Assembly (NCBI GenBank): GCA_947258755.1
Contig: CAMYJO010000003.1
Span: forward strand, 50,871 to 114,870
DNA: 64,000 bases
Direction of reading: 5' to 3'
Source: an uncultured Gammaproteobacteria bacterium
GTDB taxonomy: Bacteria > Pseudomonadota > Gammaproteobacteria > JAADHQ01
The position numbers and the translations under genes were made by a program. Shown here in pieces: positions 28,727 to 63,560 of the stretch. Numbering within the stretch: the stretch's first letter is position 1; each line of letters begins with the position of its first letter. The notes beneath the pieces were generated by a model that was not told the DNA's origin, did not search any database, and saw nothing but the letters and a program-made list of their open reading frames with translations.

Positions 28727-28743
28727 TTGCAAGACCTGTGCCA
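28727..28743 (-). promoter_or_regulatory. Sigma54 promoter for fliLMNOPQR-flhB (perfect TGGCAC-N5-TTGCA)
   Basis: The reverse complement of ttgcaagacctgtgcca is TGGCACAGGTCTTGCAA. It lies about 40 nt upstream of the fliL ATG (GAGGA RBS). Confidence 0.75.
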
Positions 28744-40888: not shown

Positions 40889-41431
40889 TTAGCTGGGTTT
40901 GTTGTTTTTACGACTGGCGGCAACCTGGCGGCGATGATTCAGGAAGATAAATTTTTGCATTAATTCCTGCACAGCGCTATCCACATGACACAGATTGAGC
41001 CGGCATAGACCCTGCTCGACATCACTGACTTCGCCATACAGACTCAATGCCGATACTGAATAGGGGTGCAGATACAACTGCAAAGAGACCAGTTGGCCTT
41101 GCTGTAACTCCTGTGCGGCAGCTGCTTCCCACTGCACACTATCGCTAGTCAATTGCACGCGGTATTGTTGTATGTCCTGCTGGTTCTGCACCATGGATCC
41201 TAACAGGCTCAGCAACAAATCAAGTTTCTTTTCTATTCTTGCTGTATCGCGATGATCACCGACATGCTCATCCATACCCGTGAGGGAGAATTCATCCAGT
41301 AACAAGGCCTGCTTTAAAATTTCAAGATTGTTTTCGCGGGTATGCGAGAGCGTATCATTATCTGGAGGGGTGTCGATCAGCTGCCATTGTAAAGGCAGTC
41401 TGGCTTGATAATTTATATTACTTTCATCCAT
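40889..41431 (-). CDS. Hypothetical protein between fliT-like and fleQ
   Basis: The 180-aa ORF has no recognisable motif that I can assert. It shows a weak PilZ-like resemblance in its C-terminal half. Confidence 0.5.
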   Translation of the reverse strand: MDESNINYQARLPLQWQLIDTPPDNDTLSHTRENNLEILKQALLLDEFSLTGMDEHVGDHRDTARIEKKLDLLLSLLGSMVQNQQDIQQYRVQLTSDSVQWEAAAAQELQQGQLVSLQLYLHPYSVSALSLYGEVSDVEQGLCRLNLCHVDSAVQELMQKFIFLNHRRQVAASRKNNKPS

Positions 41432-43705: not shown

Positions 43706-43721
43706 TGCAACTTTAGTGCCA
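43706..43721 (-). promoter_or_regulatory. Sigma54 promoter for fliD-fliS (perfect TGGCAC-N5-TTGCA)
   Basis: The reverse complement of tgcaactttagtgcca is TGGCACTAAAGTTGCA. It lies immediately after the flaG stop. Confidence 0.75.
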
Positions 43722-44234: not shown

Positions 44235-45074
44235 TTACTGTAGCAGTGACAATGCAGCCTGTGGCAAGGTATTAGCCTGAGCCAGGATAGAGATACCAGC
44301 TTGTTGCAATATCTGCGAACGAGTCAGGTTAGCTGTCTCTGCAGCAAAGTCTGCGTCCTGAATACGGCTACGTGCAGCTGTCAGTGATTCATTGAAAGAT
44401 TCAAGGTTAGATATAACTGCCTCGAACCTGTTCTGTACCGCACCAAATGTAGCACGTTGGTTAGTGATTTCCGTGATAGCAGTATCAACACTGGCAATAG
44501 CGGCAGAAGCAGTAGCTGATGTAGTTACATCTACTGTACCTGTTGCAGCCAGATCTCCACTATAACCTGCGATACCTGTAACCGTAGTGGTATTAACAGA
44601 TACACGGTTGGTGTCTGTACCTTCGTAACCGACCTGGAAGGTCAATGTGCTAGTCGCACTCAACAGGGCCTGTCCATTGAACTCGGAAGTCTGGATATTA
44701 CGTGACAATTCCTGTGTCAGCTGATCAACCTCTTTCTGAACCTGTGCACGCTCTGTATCACCGATCGCACCATTCGCTGCCTGTACCGCCAGCTCACGAA
44801 TACGCTGCAGGTTATCAGCAATCTGACCGAGTGATGTTTCAGCAGTCTGACCCAGGGAAATACCATCACCGGCATTTCGGATCGCAACCGCGTTACCACG
44901 GATCTGCTTGGTAAAGCCTTCAGCAATGGCCAGACCGGATGCATCGTCCTTAGCGCTGTTGATACGCAGACCAGATGAAAGACGTTGTAATGAAGTTTGT
45001 AATGAAGACTGGGTCTTGTTCAGGTTCCTGATGGAATTGATTGACGCCAGGTTACTATTGACTACTAATGGCAT
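44235..45074 (-). CDS. fliC: Flagellin FliC (short, about 279 aa; Ser/Thr-rich central segment)
   Basis: The start was chosen at MPLVVNSNLASIN, with a GGAGG RBS. D0/D1 are conserved at the N- and C-termini (LSLLQ end). Confidence 0.9.
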   Translation of the reverse strand: MPLVVNSNLASINSIRNLNKTQSSLQTSLQRLSSGLRINSAKDDASGLAIAEGFTKQIRGNAVAIRNAGDGISLGQTAETSLGQIADNLQRIRELAVQAANGAIGDTERAQVQKEVDQLTQELSRNIQTSEFNGQALLSATSTLTFQVGYEGTDTNRVSVNTTTVTGIAGYSGDLAATGTVDVTTSATASAAIASVDTAITEITNQRATFGAVQNRFEAVISNLESFNESLTAARSRIQDADFAAETANLTRSQILQQAGISILAQANTLPQAALSLLQ

Positions 45075-45419: not shown

Positions 45420-48400
45420 TTACTTCACAGCAGAACGTGCGTGCGTATGCTGAGAATCCATACCTTTTATATTGAGCGCCCGTGCCCAGGCATCGATGTT
45501 ACTACTGAGCATAAAGTTGTCCCGCACCCATTTTTGTAAAACATCACCCTCTTGATAAGCGGCATCGAGATCATAAATGCGCTCACGAATGGCTTCAATC
45601 CAGGCCTCTTTTTTGTTCTGCACATGTTTGACCGGGGCATTCTGGTAGGGATAGATATCCGTGCATATAACAGGCCAACCAAGTATTCCGTACTCTAACA
45701 GCCTTAAATTACTTTTTGCCTCATTAAAGGGATGTTGTGCCAATGGCGCAATGGCGACATCCAGATCAAGGCTGGCCAGTTTTTCAGCATAACCGGTAAA
45801 CGACAGCACAAACTCATGTTCTTCGGCAATGTCATCCTTTATTTCCTCAGGACACATGCCAAAGAATACCCAATCCACCTCATGTGCCGTTTCCTTGACA
45901 ACATCGATGATAAAGGCAAGGTCATCTGCATGTTGTTGCGCACCCGCCCAGCCAACTCGTGGCTTGTTACTTCTACCTCGTTTCGAAGTCAGTTCCGCCC
46001 AAACATCGTCCTCCAGACAGTTAGGAAGTACCTGGATATCATTGATCATGTTATGGCACAGGTCAGCTAATGGCTCAGTCGATACAATCAGACGATCACA
46101 AAAGCCCAGTGCATTGCGTAAGCGCTTTCTTGGTTCTGATGGAATCGCTTTTCTGAAATTGTTCCCCTCTGGCACGTTGGTGATCAGATCATCCAGGGTA
46201 AACACCTTGAATACATCGAGGTATTTTTTGTATTCTTCCAGAGTTACAAGTGAGTTCTTGGCAATACCTGCATGCGAAATAACGGTATCTGCTCCTGAGC
46301 GGGCCAGCTCCGTTAGTCTTAGTATACGTTGCTCATTAAATCGGTACGCATGTGTGCATTCGGTTTGCGCCAGCCCCGCCTTGGCTATTTGCCTTAGCGG
46401 TCCACGGATTCGATATTCGCCACTACCACCAAACAACGGCATGCCAATAATTTTCTCCCTGTCTTGAAAAACCGGATCCCAATTGATAATTACACCGGTT
46501 TCGACCTGGTAACTATTATTGATTAAACTGAGATGACGATTATAGGCTGGATCATTGGCAATTTCAGACATCCAGGTAGACATCATATACTGACATTCAG
46601 CCCTGAAACCGTCTTCGTGCTGCTTACGTTGCTCATGGGCACGATCTATTTGCGATGCATTTCCATAATGCAATAATGTTGCAAATGGCGTCCACACGAT
46701 ACGATGACCTGTTTCTCTGATTTTAAGACACAGGTCCACATCATTATAGGAAACCTTGAGATTCTCGGCATCCATACCATCAACTGCATCGTAGACCGAT
46801 TTTTTAACCAGCATACATGCGCCAGTGACCGCGGAATAATTCTGATCAACCTGCAGGCGACCCATATAACCGCCTTGCTTAATATCTGCATTACCAAGAT
46901 AGGGATGACCGGCAACGCCGTCCATACCCAAGACGACACCGGCATGCTGAATGTCAGATGTTTCAGGATAGGCCAGGCGCGCGCCGACAACACCTACGTC
47001 TTCACGCATTGCATATGACATCATCCTGTCCAACCAATTATCCTGAATGATTTTGGTATCATTATTCAGGAATAACAGATAATCGCCATTGGCTTCTGCA
47101 GCTGCCATATTGGATATGGCCGCATAATTAAACGCCTCGGGATATTTCAACACGCGTACGTGGTTATCAGGAATATTATGCATATCCTCAAGGTATGCCA
47201 GGCTGTCCACATCTGTTGTCTGATTATCGATAACAAGCACTTCATAATTTTGATATTGCGTGCGCTCCAATAAGGAGTTCAGACAACCGGTGATACAGTC
47301 GAATTTATCTTTAGTTGGTATAATGATGCTGACCAAGGGGCTATGATCATACAGATACTCTACTCTGATAGTATCCTGTAGGTAGCCATCATGAATGTTG
47401 GCCTTGATCTTTTTGGTTTGCAAGAAATCGCTGACCAGTTCTTTCCTGTAATGATGCGTATCCAGTCTGCTCAGCTGTGTCGGTACGTGATACAGGATGT
47501 TATCAATATGCAATATGCTCTTCTCATCATGATGAGCAAGTACTTTCAGGAGCATGTCGTAATGCTCAAGACCAAAACAACGACTGAGCCCGCCAATTTC
47601 CGTCAAAACAGCATTTTTGATCATACAAACCGGACCGATATAATCACTTGACAGCAAATAATCATAATTAAAATCCGGCTTCAACTGAGGGCTCTGATAT
47701 GAGCCATCGGCTTCGATAAGATCGTGATCAAAATAAACAAAGCCGATATTATTGTTAAGATTAATATGATCAACAAATGTATTCAGAAAATGCGCTTCAA
47801 ATTCCATTCCAGGAAGAATGACCGATAGCCAATCGTTATCAGCCATAGCAGTCATCGATGTAAGACTTGCATCCAGATCCTGGTCATTGACGACCTGACA
47901 CCACTCAATACTACCTTTGGAGGTATTCAGCATGCCTGGCCGAGGCAATTCACTGATCACCTTAAGCGTCCAGCCTGTGTAGAATGATAACTCAAGGCTT
48001 GCCATGGTCGCACGCAGCATGTCTTCCTGCCCTGTACTCAGATACATGACAAACGTGACTGCCGGCCTGCTACTCCATGTATACTGCATCCTTTCTGCCA
48101 TTAATTGTGCGTCAATCTCTTCGATCGAATGCCCTTTTTGCCACTGCCTATACTGCTCACGCCGCGAATACAATTCATGAACGCGCTGCAACTCCGATAT
48201 AGATACTGTTTTGTCGCCGGACAGAGAATCGTCCGTGATCCAGTGCAGTGTTGTAAATTTTGTTATACGTTTAAGCTTATATTTCTCACCCACACGTAAC
48301 CAGAATTCCTGATCACCTATGGCCTTGTATGATTCATCGAAATACCCCAACTCGGCATGTAGTGACTTTCTCCACATCGGGTGTGGACCAACCATCGGCC

Positions 48401-51400
48401 TGGACAATAATTCATTGAATTCATACTTGGGCCAAACATAGGTACCGCTGACAGAATTTTCCTCAAAAGTTTCATGCGGAACTGGTGTCAGAAAAGCATT
48501 ACCATAAGCAATAGCAACTTCGAGATCGTCATCCAGTGCACGCATAAGCTGTTCACATGCCTCGCGATGCAGGCGGTCATTGGTACTACAGGATATAATA
48601 TATTTACCAGATGCATTCCTGACAGCGATATTCCAAGCCTCATAGATGCCAATACGTTCAGGTGTACGTATATATTTTATATTGGAATATTGTTTCTGGT
48701 ATTCCTCGACAATTGATTTTTCATTCTCGGGAGAGTTTGCATCGACAATAACAATTTCAATATTGTCCGCAATCGTTTGCGACAACAAGTCATCAAGGCA
48801 TTCACGCATAAATGACTCTGATGCGTAGGTTGATACGATAGCACTAACGACAGTGCCTGAAAGTCTTGTGGCACTACTGCTGCGATCCTGCTGAGCATTA
48901 ATCTTTGCTTCGGTCGCAGACAGCCGACTTGCCTCTTCATGCTGACCACTCTGCTTAAGAATTTCTGCCAGGTTCTTTAAAATGACATCATCATTTGGAT
49001 TGATTCCGTAGCCCATTCTGAGATATTTCACGGCCGTCAACAGATCCTGACACTGCCAAGCTAAGATACCGAGATTATTATAAAATTCACTGTTATAGGG
49101 CCAAGACTCTATCGCCGCTATAAAACATTGATGCGCCTGATCAACTTCACTCGAATAGAAGGCCTGCTCACCCTGCTCATTTAGTTTAGCCGCCTCATTG
49201 TAACTGGCTTCAAACTCATCTATAAAGGCCCTATTGACAAATAGTGCGTCACCATGGACCCCGGTATTCATCATGTCTTCAAAACCAATAAACACAAAGT
49301 CTTCATGCAGGTATTCAACTACATCATCCAGTAAACGTGCACCTTCATACATTTCCACGGTACTGGCTTCAGTATAAATCACCTTGACGTTTGCCAGCAG
49401 TTTCCTGTCAATGCCTGTGAGCACCATATATTCCGCGCCCTGAACATCAATGTATAACATGTCTGGCACTTCAAGATCTGAATGCTCAATGATGTGCTGT
49501 AACGAAACCTGATCGACTTCAATTTCCCCACGCATATCTACGTCAGGAAATATATTCTTATGCTCTTTCATTGGTAACAGAGAACTGGAATATAAATTAT
49601 TACTGATATTAAAAGTCACCTTGCCAACGCGATCGGATACGGCATAAGGAAGCACCTTAACCCTTGAATCATATTGGAAAGCCTGATTCAATTGTTTGTA
49701 CACGTCCGGAATCGGTTCGAATAACGCAATACTTTCCATGTTCTTATACAATGAGAAGAACCATTCACGCTCCTCAAACAGGTGCACGCCGACAAAGAAA
49801 ATATTTTTGATGTTGTCCGCAATATATGCCCTTTCCATATAGGCTTTAAGTGTTTCATTAGCCGCCAGGCTGCGTAAGTTCAGGCCTTCATTACTCTCTT
49901 CCTCCCTATCCTCGACCTTGTCATCTATTTTCTCTATTTGAACAGGCTCATTTGTATCTGCACTTGACGAGGTTATTTCTTTAAACGCATTAGCCACATG
50001 CTCATCATCTGGTTTTGCATCCAGATAAACCTGGCAAATGTTAATGGCATCGGCATGCTCACCCATAGCCATCAGCAGGTTAGTTAAATTAAGCACGGTA
50101 TACTTGTTATATTGATCAAGCGCATAGGCCTTACCGAGATACGCCAATGCCGTACTGGCATCGTCTCCTTCCCAGTAGTAAACAGCGAGGTTATTCAAGG
50201 TGTCGACATTATGTTCAGATATGCTCAGGGCTTCATTCAGCTTTTCCAGCGCGCCCTGCCTGTTTCCGGACTGGTACAGCTCCTCAGCAAACTTATTCAG
50301 TTCTGCCAGCTTGGCTTCGTCACCCGGAAGCGAATGCTTCGACGTTGCTTCGATACTATCATTTGTATCAGCAATAAGCGCCTGATTGTGAAGGCGTGTC
50401 TGACCTTTAATATTTTGCAAGGCCATTTCCATCAACAGACCAGATGCTATTTTCGCCATATTATCCCAGGAAAAATGTGCGGCTCTGCGTAGTCCGGCTA
50501 TCGCCAACTGCTTTCTGTATTCCGGCTTCTGTATGTCCTGTAACGCTGACAGCATCGCTGTGACATCATTGGCTGCTACATAATAGGCCGCATCTCCAGC
50601 CACTTCCGGTATAGAACCAGCCTGACAGGTGATTATAGGACATTCGCAAGACATAGCCTCAAGCAAAGGCATGCCAAATCCTTCATACAAGGACGGATAA
50701 ACCAGGGCCAGAGCCGCGCTATAACAGGCAACCAGATCATTTTCGGGCAATGACAGCACATGAACTCTACTGCCATGCTGACATTCCTTTAATTCTGTCT
50801 CAAGCTCAGAATCCCCGCCAACACAGACAATCTCGAAATCTTCGCTATTTTCGAGTAATTCCATGGCCTTGAAAAATTGTACTGCATTCTTGTAATTTTC
50901 ACGCCTGCCAACCAACATGAAAAATGGCTTTGTTATGCCGTATTTTTGTCGAAAGGCATTACAACGTTCTTCTCCGGAATTTCTAAAATGTTCGCCGACG
51001 CCATTATAAGTAATATATAAAGGCTTATTGTTGACATGTGGAAAATATTTGTACAAATCATCTGCAGTATTATTTGAAACTGACATATATGCAGAGGCAT
51101 ACTCTATGGCTTGATGCTTTTCTTTCCATACGGGAGACGACATATCCCAACCGAAGATTTCTGGTATCATGTCGTGCACCAGCAAGACCGACGGCGTACT
51201 GACTGGGTGAGAATAATAAGTGGAAACGAACACATCGGCTTCCAGCTCATCGCAGATATCCTGCAATAATCGCCTGTCATGTTCACCGCAGCCTGTATAG
51301 GCCGGCGCATCAATATAATTGATCCCACGTATTCTGTCTGCGGTGAATCCACGGTCTATGACGTGTACATATCTTGAAAAGCCACTCTGCAACCAGCTTT

Positions 51401-53126
51401 TCAACAAAAACTCCCATACCCTGACAACACCTGCATTTCTCATATGCAACAATACGCCATCGACGACAATGGTTGGCATATGTATATTGCTGAGCATGGG
51501 TTGTAGCGGATAATTACTGACCCGATCAATTTTTGTTTCATCAGTTACCCATGCAAGATGCTTTTTCAGTGTGACCGGATAGTCATTATCGGTCAATAAG
51601 CCATGCCATTGCTCCATCGCATTATGGTAACCGTAATATTTCTCCTTAAACCATAGCTGTTGAGGTATAGCATAGGCATAGTGTTGGAACACTAACCCAT
51701 GTTGTTCGGTTTCATCATGCATAAACGGATTGATTGACGCAACATTGACCTGCTCTGCATTATCATTTTCCATAACGAGAACAGGTGGTTCATGCGCCGC
51801 CCAGTACATACCAGGCTCAAATTTCCATGTCCGCAACCACTCAAATGACGGGTTTTGTGAATAGCAATGTCGCGTGCTGACAATGTTTTCCATGCCCACA
51901 AAAAACCAACACCAATAAAATGCAGCTGTTTTGTTCGGCTCGTCGATAAACATCTTTCTAGCTGTTGAAATTTGTTCAACAGTCCAAAGCTCATCAACAT
52001 CGACCTGCCATAACAAACACGTGGTCTTGATAGTGGATAATGGCGCATTGATCATCTCGCGCTTACCATCCCAGAAAACATTATCGGGTTTGCGGTAGAT
52101 ACTTACATTGTCAGGATAGGTAGCCTGCAGCCAATCCAGGTATTCTGTTGTGCCATCATTACTTCGGCCCTTTTCATGAATATCTTCGGTAATACCGCCG
52201 CCATTATGCAGGCCCCAGGCGGTATCGTGCTTAAGATCCGCAACACCCTCTATAATGTGCCAATGCCAACTAAATGGTAGCTGTAGAAATCTTTCAATAT
52301 GTTTAGATATATACGGTTCGCCATTCAGTACTATGGTAAAGAAGTGTACCGGCAGATCATCCTGGCCTGTTTTTTTGTCATTAATAGATACTTGCTCAGC
52401 TCTGGGCGAGGATGCTTCCACAACACTCGGAACAGATTCCTTGCCTATTAGTTTAAACACCGCAAAGCCATTTCTGGTGGTCCAGTTCTCCTGGATTAAT
52501 TCATAATGTTCGTCTTGTTTTAAGCGTTGATAATTTTCATAATTCTTGAACGCGTTGACATCATCAAGCAAGATATAATTAGCCCCGTAGACCTGATTGA
52601 GTTCTGCCTTTCCGGTAAACTCCGAGCCATCGATCAGCACTAGATCGAAGGTATCGATACCCGACAGGCGTTTAATCTTCTCAATACCGTTTTCATTTGC
52701 GTTATGTTCAAGGACATATCGCATGTCCTGATTCAGCCAGCCTATGACTTGCTCAACAGGGTACTGACTGATAGTTGTCTGGTATCTGCGGTGAAATTCA
52801 GCGACCTCTTCAGGCTTCGGAAATTGATCTATAGATACAGACGAAAGTTGATAACAATGGACAAATTCATCATTGGCATAACGCTGTTTCAAGGCATTTG
52901 CCCTTACTTCGGAAACCTCCATGCAATACATCGCTGGCTTTCCAGGATTAACGCGGGCGCCAGTGACAAAGGCCTCGGTACTGCCGCCACCGGCAGAAGA
53001 ACCGATTTCCAGTATCGTTGAAATCTCCTCTTTACGGGCGAGGTCTATAATCGCATAGTAAAATTCATCATCCTTGATTTCCGGCGGGATGATGTTATCC
53101 AGTTCTGATTTGCGTTCGTCCGACAT
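45420..53126 (-). CDS. Giant multidomain glycosyltransferase/methyltransferase (about 2570 aa): MTase - GT-A-like - GT4 - TPR - FkbM MTase - TPR - GT2 x3 - C-terminal GT-B-like
   Basis: A single uninterrupted ORF lies between fliC and flgL. The start was chosen at MSDERKSELD (ATG 53124-53126, AGAGAGGG RBS). The track's TTG start at 53201 overlaps the promoter box. Motifs include EIGSSAGGGSTE, YPSLYEGFGMPLLEAM, FkbM-like VGKVTFNISNN..DVQGAEY and SIIIPTKDK..VIDNQ..FLNNDT. Confidence 0.8.
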   Translation of the reverse strand: MSDERKSELDNIIPPEIKDDEFYYAIIDLARKEEISTILEIGSSAGGGSTEAFVTGARVNPGKPAMYCMEVSEVRANALKQRYANDEFVHCYQLSSVSIDQFPKPEEVAEFHRRYQTTISQYPVEQVIGWLNQDMRYVLEHNANENGIEKIKRLSGIDTFDLVLIDGSEFTGKAELNQVYGANYILLDDVNAFKNYENYQRLKQDEHYELIQENWTTRNGFAVFKLIGKESVPSVVEASSPRAEQVSINDKKTGQDDLPVHFFTIVLNGEPYISKHIERFLQLPFSWHWHIIEGVADLKHDTAWGLHNGGGITEDIHEKGRSNDGTTEYLDWLQATYPDNVSIYRKPDNVFWDGKREMINAPLSTIKTTCLLWQVDVDELWTVEQISTARKMFIDEPNKTAAFYWCWFFVGMENIVSTRHCYSQNPSFEWLRTWKFEPGMYWAAHEPPVLVMENDNAEQVNVASINPFMHDETEQHGLVFQHYAYAIPQQLWFKEKYYGYHNAMEQWHGLLTDNDYPVTLKKHLAWVTDETKIDRVSNYPLQPMLSNIHMPTIVVDGVLLHMRNAGVVRVWEFLLKSWLQSGFSRYVHVIDRGFTADRIRGINYIDAPAYTGCGEHDRRLLQDICDELEADVFVSTYYSHPVSTPSVLLVHDMIPEIFGWDMSSPVWKEKHQAIEYASAYMSVSNNTADDLYKYFPHVNNKPLYITYNGVGEHFRNSGEERCNAFRQKYGITKPFFMLVGRRENYKNAVQFFKAMELLENSEDFEIVCVGGDSELETELKECQHGSRVHVLSLPENDLVACYSAALALVYPSLYEGFGMPLLEAMSCECPIITCQAGSIPEVAGDAAYYVAANDVTAMLSALQDIQKPEYRKQLAIAGLRRAAHFSWDNMAKIASGLLMEMALQNIKGQTRLHNQALIADTNDSIEATSKHSLPGDEAKLAELNKFAEELYQSGNRQGALEKLNEALSISEHNVDTLNNLAVYYWEGDDASTALAYLGKAYALDQYNKYTVLNLTNLLMAMGEHADAINICQVYLDAKPDDEHVANAFKEITSSSADTNEPVQIEKIDDKVEDREEESNEGLNLRSLAANETLKAYMERAYIADNIKNIFFVGVHLFEEREWFFSLYKNMESIALFEPIPDVYKQLNQAFQYDSRVKVLPYAVSDRVGKVTFNISNNLYSSSLLPMKEHKNIFPDVDMRGEIEVDQVSLQHIIEHSDLEVPDMLYIDVQGAEYMVLTGIDRKLLANVKVIYTEASTVEMYEGARLLDDVVEYLHEDFVFIGFEDMMNTGVHGDALFVNRAFIDEFEASYNEAAKLNEQGEQAFYSSEVDQAHQCFIAAIESWPYNSEFYNNLGILAWQCQDLLTAVKYLRMGYGINPNDDVILKNLAEILKQSGQHEEASRLSATEAKINAQQDRSSSATRLSGTVVSAIVSTYASESFMRECLDDLLSQTIADNIEIVIVDANSPENEKSIVEEYQKQYSNIKYIRTPERIGIYEAWNIAVRNASGKYIISCSTNDRLHREACEQLMRALDDDLEVAIAYGNAFLTPVPHETFEENSVSGTYVWPKYEFNELLSRPMVGPHPMWRKSLHAELGYFDESYKAIGDQEFWLRVGEKYKLKRITKFTTLHWITDDSLSGDKTVSISELQRVHELYSRREQYRQWQKGHSIEEIDAQLMAERMQYTWSSRPAVTFVMYLSTGQEDMLRATMASLELSFYTGWTLKVISELPRPGMLNTSKGSIEWCQVVNDQDLDASLTSMTAMADNDWLSVILPGMEFEAHFLNTFVDHINLNNNIGFVYFDHDLIEADGSYQSPQLKPDFNYDYLLSSDYIGPVCMIKNAVLTEIGGLSRCFGLEHYDMLLKVLAHHDEKSILHIDNILYHVPTQLSRLDTHHYRKELVSDFLQTKKIKANIHDGYLQDTIRVEYLYDHSPLVSIIIPTKDKFDCITGCLNSLLERTQYQNYEVLVIDNQTTDVDSLAYLEDMHNIPDNHVRVLKYPEAFNYAAISNMAAAEANGDYLLFLNNDTKIIQDNWLDRMMSYAMREDVGVVGARLAYPETSDIQHAGVVLGMDGVAGHPYLGNADIKQGGYMGRLQVDQNYSAVTGACMLVKKSVYDAVDGMDAENLKVSYNDVDLCLKIRETGHRIVWTPFATLLHYGNASQIDRAHEQRKQHEDGFRAECQYMMSTWMSEIANDPAYNRHLSLINNSYQVETGVIINWDPVFQDREKIIGMPLFGGSGEYRIRGPLRQIAKAGLAQTECTHAYRFNEQRILRLTELARSGADTVISHAGIAKNSLVTLEEYKKYLDVFKVFTLDDLITNVPEGNNFRKAIPSEPRKRLRNALGFCDRLIVSTEPLADLCHNMINDIQVLPNCLEDDVWAELTSKRGRSNKPRVGWAGAQQHADDLAFIIDVVKETAHEVDWVFFGMCPEEIKDDIAEEHEFVLSFTGYAEKLASLDLDVAIAPLAQHPFNEAKSNLRLLEYGILGWPVICTDIYPYQNAPVKHVQNKKEAWIEAIRERIYDLDAAYQEGDVLQKWVRDNFMLSSNIDAWARALNIKGMDSQHTHARSAVK

Positions 53127-53182
53127 CTGGCCCTCTCTTTGATAGCCTGTTATTTGTCTCATTTTTTCGTGTTTTGATACGA

Positions 53183-53198
53183 TGCAAGAATTGATCCA
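53183..53198 (-). promoter_or_regulatory. Sigma54-like promoter for the giant GT/MT gene (TGGATC-N5-TTGCA)
   Basis: The reverse complement of tgcaagaattgatcca is TGGATCAATTCTTGCA. The -12 element is perfect and the -24 element has two mismatches. It lies about 55 nt upstream of the chosen ATG. Confidence 0.45.
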
Positions 53199-53387
53199 CA
53201 ATATAAATAATCTATAATTACAATTACTTATAATTTTTAAGATCGTGTGACTATCAATGACGCCGGTTTTTTGTCACCGCAAAACCAACACGTTAAACAA
53301 TCGATGGATGAACTTTTTGAGTATCGCAAGAAATCACTTATACGTGCTGATTGTGCCCAGCAGGGGCATAAAGCCGTCTATACAGTC

Positions 53388-54281
53388 TTAGAGGAAGTTA
53401 AATAGAGAGAGGCCTTGTACACGCACATAGGACTGCTGTGCCGCTTCAAGACCTGCACGTCTCAAATTGAGTTCAGTAATGGCCTCTGCCAGGTCCAGAT
53501 CTTCCAGATCAGATAATAACTCCTTACTCTGAACGACAACGCCTTCATTGACATTATTTTGCACATCCACTGATTTCAGACGTGCGCCTGTCCTTGACCT
53601 GAAGTTCGATAAATTCTCCATCACTGCATCAATCTGCTCAAGATCAGTCCCTGATTGCGTATCAGACTCAAGATTAACGGCGAGGTTATAAATGGCACTG
53701 AAGGCATTTTCTGACGTATTTTCGACATTAAAGAACAGGTCAAAGCCATTATCACTGTCTTCTATATTCCGGCTTGGTCCAATTGCAACCCGCCTTTGTC
53801 CCTGATCACCGGCATAACTGTAGCTACCACTACCATTGTCACTAACCGGCGCAACTTCGCCATTAAAGCCGGAAAACAGGTATTCACCACTAACATCCTT
53901 GCGTCCGGACAGACTGATGATTTCATCCAGATGCTGACGTATCTCTGCCGCAATTGCATCGCGATTCTCCTGTCCCTGGGTATCATTCAGTCCCTGCACC
54001 GCGAGTTCCCTGATGCGCTGATAGACATCAACCATACTGGTCAATGTAATATCCTGGGACTCCAGGCGTGCCTGGACCATATCGGCGTTGCGCTGATACT
54101 GTTCGTTAATCTCCACGACCTGGCGTAAATCGAGAATCCGTGCCGATCCGGCTGGATCTTCTGAAGGTGTTAATATCCGTCGGCCTGTTGAAACCCTTTG
54201 CTGAATATCACTAAGGCGTTCCTGCTGTTGTAACATCCTGCTGACGCTTTCCATCTGGAATTGTGCTGTTGAGACTCTCAT
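53388..54281 (-). CDS. flgL: Hook-filament junction protein FlgL
   Basis: The 297-aa ORF has flagellin-like N- and C-terminal helices. Confidence 0.9.
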   Translation of the reverse strand: MRVSTAQFQMESVSRMLQQQERLSDIQQRVSTGRRILTPSEDPAGSARILDLRQVVEINEQYQRNADMVQARLESQDITLTSMVDVYQRIRELAVQGLNDTQGQENRDAIAAEIRQHLDEIISLSGRKDVSGEYLFSGFNGEVAPVSDNGSGSYSYAGDQGQRRVAIGPSRNIEDSDNGFDLFFNVENTSENAFSAIYNLAVNLESDTQSGTDLEQIDAVMENLSNFRSRTGARLKSVDVQNNVNEGVVVQSKELLSDLEDLDLAEAITELNLRRAGLEAAQQSYVRVQGLSLFNFL

Positions 54282-63543: not shown

Positions 63544-63560
63544 TTGCAACAGACGTGCCA
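63544..63560 (-). promoter_or_regulatory. Sigma54 promoter for the flgB operon (perfect TGGCAC-N5-TTGCA)
   Basis: The reverse complement of ttgcaacagacgtgcca is TGGCACGTCTGTTGCAA. It lies about 36 nt upstream of the flgB ATG. Confidence 0.75.

Follow-up and report, generated by a model that had tools for sequence, protein, structure and literature searches.

The stretch of DNA analysed here, hereafter the window, comprises 64,000 nucleotides of a contig from an uncultured gammaproteobacterium (CAMYJO010000003.1). On its minus strand lies a giant gene, placed between the flagellar genes flgL and fliC, whose predicted product is a flagellin-modifying enzyme with several glycosyltransferase (GT) modules and at least one methyltransferase module. 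The preliminary description of this DNA had reported a single long open reading frame (ORF) in the slot between fliC and flgL, and both points were borne out. The ORF runs from 45420 to 53201 without interruption and has 2593 codons when counted from TTG. Upstream on this strand come flgJ, flgK, and flgL. The downstream neighbors, also on the same strand, are fliC (279 aa), flaG, fliD, fliS, a fliT-like gene, a gene for an atypical PilZ protein (tPilZ), and fleQ, which encodes a FleQ-type sigma54 activator. The interval between flgL and fliC is the position of Fgt1-type flagellin glycosyltransferase genes.

The true start of the gene is almost certainly the ATG at 53126, which gives a product of 2568 aa. 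This is indicated by the ribosome-binding site GAGAGG 5 nt upstream, by an identical database protein (P0001) of 2568 aa, and by the alignment of the ortholog P0002, which begins at residue 1 on the Met of this ATG. In addition, the upstream ATG at 53162 and the TTG sit in promoter sequence, which is gapped in the spacer of the ortholog. Residues are numbered here from this Met; the numbers in the preliminary description are higher by 25. The gene and its modules, all on the minus strand, are as follows.

45420..53126, minus strand: reading frame of the multi-module enzyme of 2568 aa, ending with the stop codon at 45420-45422 (the stretch of ORF up to the TTG at 53201 overlaps the promoter)
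53132..53137, minus strand: ribosome-binding site GAGAGG, kept in the ortholog
52422..53126, minus strand: residues 1-235, Rossmann-type N-terminal domain with VLIDGSEF and LEIGSSAGGGSTEAF, the latter resembling motif I of S-adenosylmethionine (SAM)-dependent methyltransferases
51492..52355, minus strand: residues 258-545, domain X, a predicted GT-A fold glycosyltransferase with an invariant DVDE and no Pfam family
50412..51479, minus strand: residues 550-905, GT4 (GT-B) glycosyltransferase with EGFGMPLLEAM (E-x7-E)
49917..50306, minus strand: residues 941-1070, first block of tetratricopeptide repeats (TPR), with TPR matches at 947-1046
49227..49811, minus strand: residues 1106-1300, FkbM-family methyltransferase domain
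48912..49214, minus strand: residues 1305-1405, second TPR block, with TPR matches at 1318-1400
48162..48869, minus strand: residues 1420-1655, GT2 glycosyltransferase GT2a (GT2 match 1428-1539)
47427..48089, minus strand: residues 1680-1900, GT2-derived domain in which PGM replaces DxD, the first element of the core
46527..47354, minus strand: residues 1925-2200, GT2 glycosyltransferase GT2b with the motif LNNDT (GT2 match 1932-2154), the second element of the core
45423..46484, minus strand: residues 2215-2568, GT4-like GT-B domain, where the core is most conserved

The ortholog P0002 is a protein of 2548 aa from an independent assembly. It is encoded right after flgL and is 64% identical to the window protein and collinear with it from residue 1 to the end. 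The complete module combination was seen only in these two proteins, and two metagenome scans found no more full-length orthologs (the first scan gave no relatives whatever). Between the two proteins, the catalytic modules are 60-80% identical (65-80% for X, GT4, FkbM, GT2a, and the C-terminal domain), whereas the linkers are 9-43% and the TPR blocks 28-45% identical. As the modules are conserved while the linkers diverge, every module is apparently under selection.

The protein was scanned with Pfam and NCBIfam, and Pfam matches were counted at E ≤ 0.1. Four stretches free of Pfam matches were rescanned with Pfam at E up to 10. Glycos_transf_1 (PF00534) matches residues 725-874 with 87.5 bits (cut-off 26.4), and the E-x7-E motif is present there. 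The FkbM match spans residues 1129-1275, with 56.6 bits for PF05050 (cut-off 22.7) and 77.1 bits for TIGR01444 (cut-off 37.7). For GT2, PF00535 reaches 154.4 bits over two stretches and PF13641 67.9 bits, which identifies both stretches as Glycos_transf_2 domains. Thus, Glycos_transf_1, Glycos_transf_2, and FkbM all score above the curated cut-offs, and TPR was matched as well. The domain map drawn earlier from the letters holds for GT4, the TPR blocks, FkbM, the GT2 domains, and the degenerate GT2, while the N-terminal domain is a possible methyltransferase, labelled so on account of a motif. Maf (PF01973) and GT41 (PF13844) are absent from the Pfam scan of the protein at E ≤ 0.1, and the protein has no Pfam match to a glycerophosphotransferase-type domain. 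There is no transmembrane segment in the 2568 aa, the highest Kyte-Doolittle mean over 19 residues being 1.18. Genes for a flippase, a polymerase, or an ABC exporter were not found near the giant gene.

The last ~900 aa belong to the Fgt1-type flagellin glycosyltransferase family. A BLAST map of the retrieved homologs resolved two conserved blocks: block A, a cassette formed by residues 1-905, and block B, a core formed by the last ~900 aa. The core consists of the GT2-derived domain, GT2b, and the GT4-like GT-B domain. It matches P0184, a protein of 1183 aa from Pseudomonas guariconensis, with an E-value of 2e-141 and 33% identity over 894 residues (residues 1657-2550 of the window protein against 306-1179 of P0184). 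P0184 is encoded directly after flgL in an island of 8.2 kb, whose order is flgL, the 1183-aa gene, a 907-aa GT gene, a FabH-like gene, and fliC. This layout matches the published glycosylation island of P. syringae, which is 8.3 kb long and has fgt1 at its flgL end (PMC3402453). Fgt1 transfers rhamnose to Ser of flagellin in P. syringae (PMC3927599), and deletion of fgt1 leaves the flagellin unglycosylated (PMC3402453). The likeness to P. syringae Fgt1 concerns the three-domain core and was established via the positional ortholog of P. guariconensis, not with the sequence of Fgt1 itself. Fgt1 is likewise next to flgL and upstream of a flagellin of ~280 aa. The Fgt1-type Pseudomonas proteins have ~1180 aa and act with separate genes (fgt2, the viosamine island), whereas the window protein has ~1650 residues fused in front of the core and the slot contains no second glycosyltransferase gene. 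Structural or biochemical studies of Fgt1-type enzymes were not found in the literature.

The relatives of the core show the same neighborhood. The genes for P0003, P0004, P0151, and P0002 all adjoin flgL or fliC, and a 1542-aa core protein, 65-67% identical, is encoded immediately ahead of a 279-aa flagellin gene. In a core scan with one genome per species, at least 581 relatives were found, and loci were counted in the best 80. At 42 of these 80 loci, the core ORF is followed at no more than 600 bp by a flagellin ORF of the same orientation, and flagellar genes are present within 10 kb at 62. The scanned loci have 46 flagellin ORFs immediately following the core, of which 37 have 274-298 aa. 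Placement of the core beside fliC recurs in different classes of Proteobacteria and in Nitrospirota.

The core ORFs in the best 80 loci range from 679 to 2992 aa, the lowest values coming from ORFs that run off a contig end. Their median length is 1416 aa, and six of them have 2000 aa or more. The largest, a stop-to-stop ORF of 2992 aa in the cultured Azospira sp. I13 (L020 4451-13426), carries a TylF-type methyltransferase and GT4. A metagenomic core protein of 3506 aa, P0004 (L084 1996-12516), is encoded immediately upstream of a 278-aa flagellin gene. The extra modules of these two proteins are unlike those of the window protein and include a TylF-type methyltransferase, GT9, a pyruvyl-transferase-like domain, and long TPR arrays. 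Since core ORFs reach 2992 and 3506 aa there, large fusions in the flgL-fliC slot are common, and the earlier claim that a fusion of such size has no precedent in this slot does not stand. In Thiogranum longum, a protein of 1840 aa (L003 8001-13523) has a sulfotransferase and TPR fused ahead of the core. The order FkbM-TPR-GT2-core is also found in proteins of 1821-2019 aa, one of which is named Vogesella by its source, and at Methylomonas loci. The core family is widespread and barely studied, with ORFs of ~900-3500 aa and varying N-terminal modules. The window protein is therefore a large member of the Fgt1-type family, new in architecture only. Another protein with a sulfotransferase and TPR ahead of the core, P0128 (L087 1629-6812), is the closest relative of the C-terminal half of the window protein, with 74% identity.

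The first element of the core, the GT2-derived domain, is related to the neighboring GT2 (residues 1685-1870; hhalign probability 96%, E = 2e-9), and it is probably non-catalytic, as PGM stands in place of DxD. In the C-terminal domain, 35 family members share without exception the Arg of KPRVGWAG together with the Lys and Glu of NEAKSNLRLLEYG. Two Rossmann domains and the nucleotide-binding residues of GT4 type are present, and the best matches are GT4 enzymes.

Two modules at the N-terminal end have no Pfam family. Domain X has a predicted GT-A fold with a DxD-type motif. The N-terminal domain is a possible methyltransferase, as suggested by the motif resembling SAM motif I. It has no Pfam match, even at E up to 10, and no PDB hit, the best E-value of the profile search being 0.14. 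Among its homologs, three of 11 show a weak FtsJ match (E = 0.0068). hhalign, with profiles made from the retrieved proteins, gave low probabilities of 15.6% to Methyltransf_24 and 14.5% to FkbM. The domain is 77% identical to its counterpart in P0002, and in P0004 a genuine FkbM domain occupies its place, ahead of X. The PF13578 matches of homologs were rejected as representing the N-terminal domain, as PF13578 is a separate inserted domain. Domain X belongs to a strongly conserved GT-A family for which no Pfam model exists, with homologs at least 50% identical across phyla. The family has 831 representative clusters, and the top-scoring ones are mostly very large multi-domain proteins.

The surroundings of the gene give further features, also on the minus strand.

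53388..54281, minus strand: flgL, which bounds the glycosylation slot upstream
53184..53238, minus strand: AT-rich 55-nt block including the sigma54 box, which matches the spacer of the ortholog (L001 9905-9951), the spacers being otherwise diverged
53183..53198, minus strand: sigma54-type -24/-12 box TGGATCAATTCTTGCA, 56 nt before the start codon
45378..45392, minus strand: terminator-like hairpin with a T-run, ~30 nt after the stop codon
45193..45219, minus strand: sigma28-like flagellin promoter TAAA-N15-GCCGTTAA, read from the sequence
44235..45074, minus strand: gene for the 279-aa flagellin, the presumed substrate, with a Ser/Thr-rich central segment at about residues 139-200

The flagellin is short and has a Ser/Thr-rich segment, as previously noticed. 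This central segment aligns with those of the partner flagellins at other loci. The sigma54-like box assigned earlier to the giant gene was also recovered, inside the 55-nt block shared with the ortholog. Its counterpart in the ortholog spacer is TGGTTCAATTTTTGCT, 49 nt before the ortholog start. Matches to TGG-N8-TTGCW in the window lie on the strand of the flagellar genes in 10 of 11 cases. There was no terminator found between flgL and the giant gene. The giant gene would be transcribed from the conserved sigma54-type promoter, possibly together with read-through from flgKL. The separate sigma28-like promoter and the intervening hairpin apparently place the enzyme and its flagellin substrate in different tiers of the flagellar hierarchy. 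Perfect TGGCAC-N5-TTGCA boxes are present on the minus strand at 43706-43721 (just upstream of fliD), 28728-28743, and 63545-63560. The tPilZ gene (40889-41431, minus strand) is located between the fliT-like gene and fleQ, and the P0003 locus has a 175-aa tPilZ gene at the equivalent position. This position hints at a conserved cyclic di-GMP input to the flagellar cluster.

Cassette A also occurs outside flagellar loci. It consists of the methyltransferase-like domain, X, and GT4, and it is ~50% identical over ~900 residues to more than 100 proteins of 1500-4000 aa from cyanobacteria, Desulfobacterota, Ignavibacteria, and Geomonas. An OGT-like GT41 domain is fused to cassette A in ~34 of the 120 best hits, and a GT41 gene is adjacent to the cassette at all five loci inspected. 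In Oscillatoria nigro-viridis PCC 7112 (L085 10001-18242) and in Tolypothrix sp. NIES-4075 (L091 8001-17144), the cassette A homolog is followed by a GT41 gene and then by a type IV pilin gene. The cassette A cluster of Geomonas abuts flaF. Pilin glycosylation needs Ogt in a cyanobacterium (PMC9306852). The GT41 and pilin neighborhood, together with this report on Ogt, ties cassette A to the building of protein O-glycans rather than to polysaccharide synthesis, and suggests that cassette A elaborates pilin O-glycans in cyanobacteria. The uncharacterized cyanobacterial and Desulfobacterota proteins annotated as "FkbM family methyltransferase / glycosyltransferase" share cassette A with the window protein, but they are without the Fgt1-type core and are often fused or adjacent to GT41, at two loci beside a type IV pilin gene. 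In Anabaena sp. CCY 9910 (L090 1-16273), five tandem genes for small proteins (78-108 aa, PF28158) lie beside a cassette A/GT41 protein, and the locus also has an ABC exporter bearing a C39 peptidase domain. The PF28158 proteins of Anabaena may be glycosylated secreted peptides.

Several enzymes of known systems resemble the window protein in part. The preliminary description had named FgtA and Maf for comparison; the position, core homology, GT2 domains, and partner flagellin of the Fgt1 type were found in the window protein, while the distinguishing features of FgtA, GT41, and Maf enzymes were not. FgtA (PA1091) of P. aeruginosa PAO1 is likewise a fused multifunctional flagellin-modifying enzyme with GT2 in a flagellar locus, and a pa1091 mutant has unglycosylated flagellin (PMC11833859). 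It is set apart by domain content: FgtA joins a GT and a CD0244-like phosphotransferase and builds Rha-phospho-dimethylthreonine, and the Pfam scan of the window protein shows no such domain. FlmG, Maf, and GT41 enzymes modify flagellin with sugars before it leaves the cytoplasm. They have TPR beside GT domains, as the window protein does, but the latter matches neither PF01973 nor PF13844 in the Pfam scan. As the minimal Fgt1-type core contains no TPR, TPR is not a universal device for flagellin recognition in this family. In enterobacterial flagellin glycosylation islands, GT-methyltransferase fusions and FkbM genes have been reported (PMC7591256, PMC4065374, PMC4875605).

The window protein also differs from the enzymes of O-antigen and S-layer glycan synthesis, as it has no membrane association and no exporter, and as its conserved partner is the gene of a protein substrate. 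Escherichia coli WbdA/WbdD and Geobacillus WsaE are examples of single polypeptides in which multiple GT domains, in some cases together with a methyltransferase, act one after the other on the same glycan. Their acceptors are linked to undecaprenyl phosphate at the membrane, and ABC exporters are their partners.

It is likely that the window protein is a soluble cytoplasmic enzyme, whose Fgt1-type core initiates on flagellin and whose fused modules extend and methylate the glycan. Homology and synteny give good support to a direct glycosylation of flagellin. The natural reading is that the glycan is built directly on flagellin in the cytoplasm, as there is neither a membrane segment nor lipid-carrier machinery. 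The preliminary description had proposed such a synthesis on flagellin; the glycosylation role, several GT modules, at least one methyltransferase module, and the lack of membrane segment and lipid-carrier machinery agree with it, and the activities are predicted ones. The core would recognize the unexported 279-aa flagellin encoded next door and, while the flagellin is still in the cytoplasm, would link a first sugar to Ser/Thr in its exposed central part. The N-terminal ~1650 residues (cassette A, TPR, FkbM, TPR, GT2) may add up to about three further sugars. FkbM-family enzymes are sugar O-methyltransferases; the FkbM domain would O-methylate the glycan, and possibly the N-terminal domain would also do so. 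Substrate binding or the arrangement of the modules may be the task of the dead GT2 and the TPR blocks. The product would be a short methylated oligosaccharide coat on a flagellin without outer domains, and the number of modules suggests a defined oligosaccharide and not a polymer such as a processive synthase makes. The domain identities, the family of the core, the synteny, the lack of membrane segments, and the conservation of the promoter were read from the sequences themselves; from these we infer which substrate, sugars, and methylation target are involved, in what order the steps follow, and what each module does.

Beyond the position of its core, the full reading can be taken one step further. 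Cassette A might be a portable glycan-elaborating unit that works on varied initiators, the Fgt1-type core on flagellin in the window protein and P0002 and GT41 on type IV pilins in cyanobacteria, and the window protein might be a self-contained, template-free assembly line that places a methylated tetra- or pentasaccharide on flagellin. We consider this extension tentative and rather doubtful.

Several observations weigh against the reading of a core that initiates and modules that extend and methylate. Nucleotide-sugar biosynthesis genes, which would supply the donor sugars, were not found in the 64-kb window. GT2a has TND where TDD is usual, and one GT2-like domain has no DxD motif at all. 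At 18 of the 80 core loci, no flagellar gene lies within 10 kb. The box TGGATCAATTCTTGCA has two mismatches to TGGCAC-N5-TTGCW, a degree of similarity for which the window contains 58 matches against 43 expected by chance. An inverting GT2 would account for the alpha-L-Rha linkage known from P. syringae, but the most conserved domain of the core is GT4-like, a type that is usually retaining. The host belongs to an uncultured lineage, represented by a metagenome-assembled genome. By its FlhA, which has 66-70% identity to those of Thiohalobacter and Thiogranum, it falls among uncultured gammaproteobacteria.

Among the alternatives, the one that fares best is a flagellin glycosyltransferase that adds no more than one or two sugars, while its remaining GT-like, TPR, and methyltransferase-like domains serve as scaffolds, substrate binders, or regulators or are in decay. 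The TND of GT2a and the DxD-less domain, which is nonetheless kept across the family, are in favor of it, as are the N-terminal domain that matches no methyltransferase family and the minimal Fgt1-type protein of Pseudomonas, which functions with far fewer modules. The strong conservation of X, GT4, FkbM, GT2a, and the C-terminal domain relative to the linkers in the comparison with P0002 argues against it, and so do the intact motifs: X has its DVDE, GT4 its E-x7-E, GT2b its NND, and the C-terminal domain its Arg/Lys/Glu triad. We regard this alternative as unlikely.

Less probable still is another acceptor for all or part of the enzyme, such as FliD, the hook-associated proteins, a pilin, or a polysaccharide, with the flgL-fliC position reflecting co-regulation. 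Cassette A does occur beside GT41 and pilin genes in non-flagellated cyanobacteria, some core loci are remote from flagellar genes as counted above, and the family member P0149 is labelled "O-antigen biosynthesis protein" by one source. Against these points stand the core tightly kept beside fliC over classes of Proteobacteria and Nitrospirota, the genetic proof for Fgt1 in Pseudomonas (PMC3927599, PMC3402453), and the lack of a membrane anchor and of a flippase, polymerase, or ABC exporter nearby.

That the long ORF is an assembly or binning artefact fusing separate genes is very improbable: the contig is metagenome-assembled and without a close cultured relative, and a related locus encodes the C-terminal half on its own (as the 1542-aa protein), but the collinear ortholog from an independent assembly, also after flgL, the absence of long DNA repeats inside the gene, the uniform base composition along it, and the ORFs of 2992 and 3506 aa in the same slot all argue against such a fusion.

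Under the preferred reading, in which the core initiates on flagellin and the fused modules build up the glycan, the value of the window protein lies in its modular logic, in an unannotated GT-A family, and in a cassette shared with cyanobacterial pilin loci; its size is less exceptional than first thought. If module order maps to the glycan, it would be a single-gene soluble system for a defined methylated oligosaccharide, which could be used in glycoengineering. The same system would help to show how Fgt1-type enzymes recognize flagellin. The sharing of cassette A with GT41 and pilin loci hints at common machinery for two filament proteins. The sulfotransferase fusions of Thiogranum longum and P0128 predict sulfated flagellin glycans and indicate that modules are swapped among close relatives. 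The chemistry of the flagellar surface would be varied by swapping modules (methyltransferases, sulfotransferases, and glycosyltransferases) before a constant core, which bears on phage and immune evasion and on short flagellins without outer domains.

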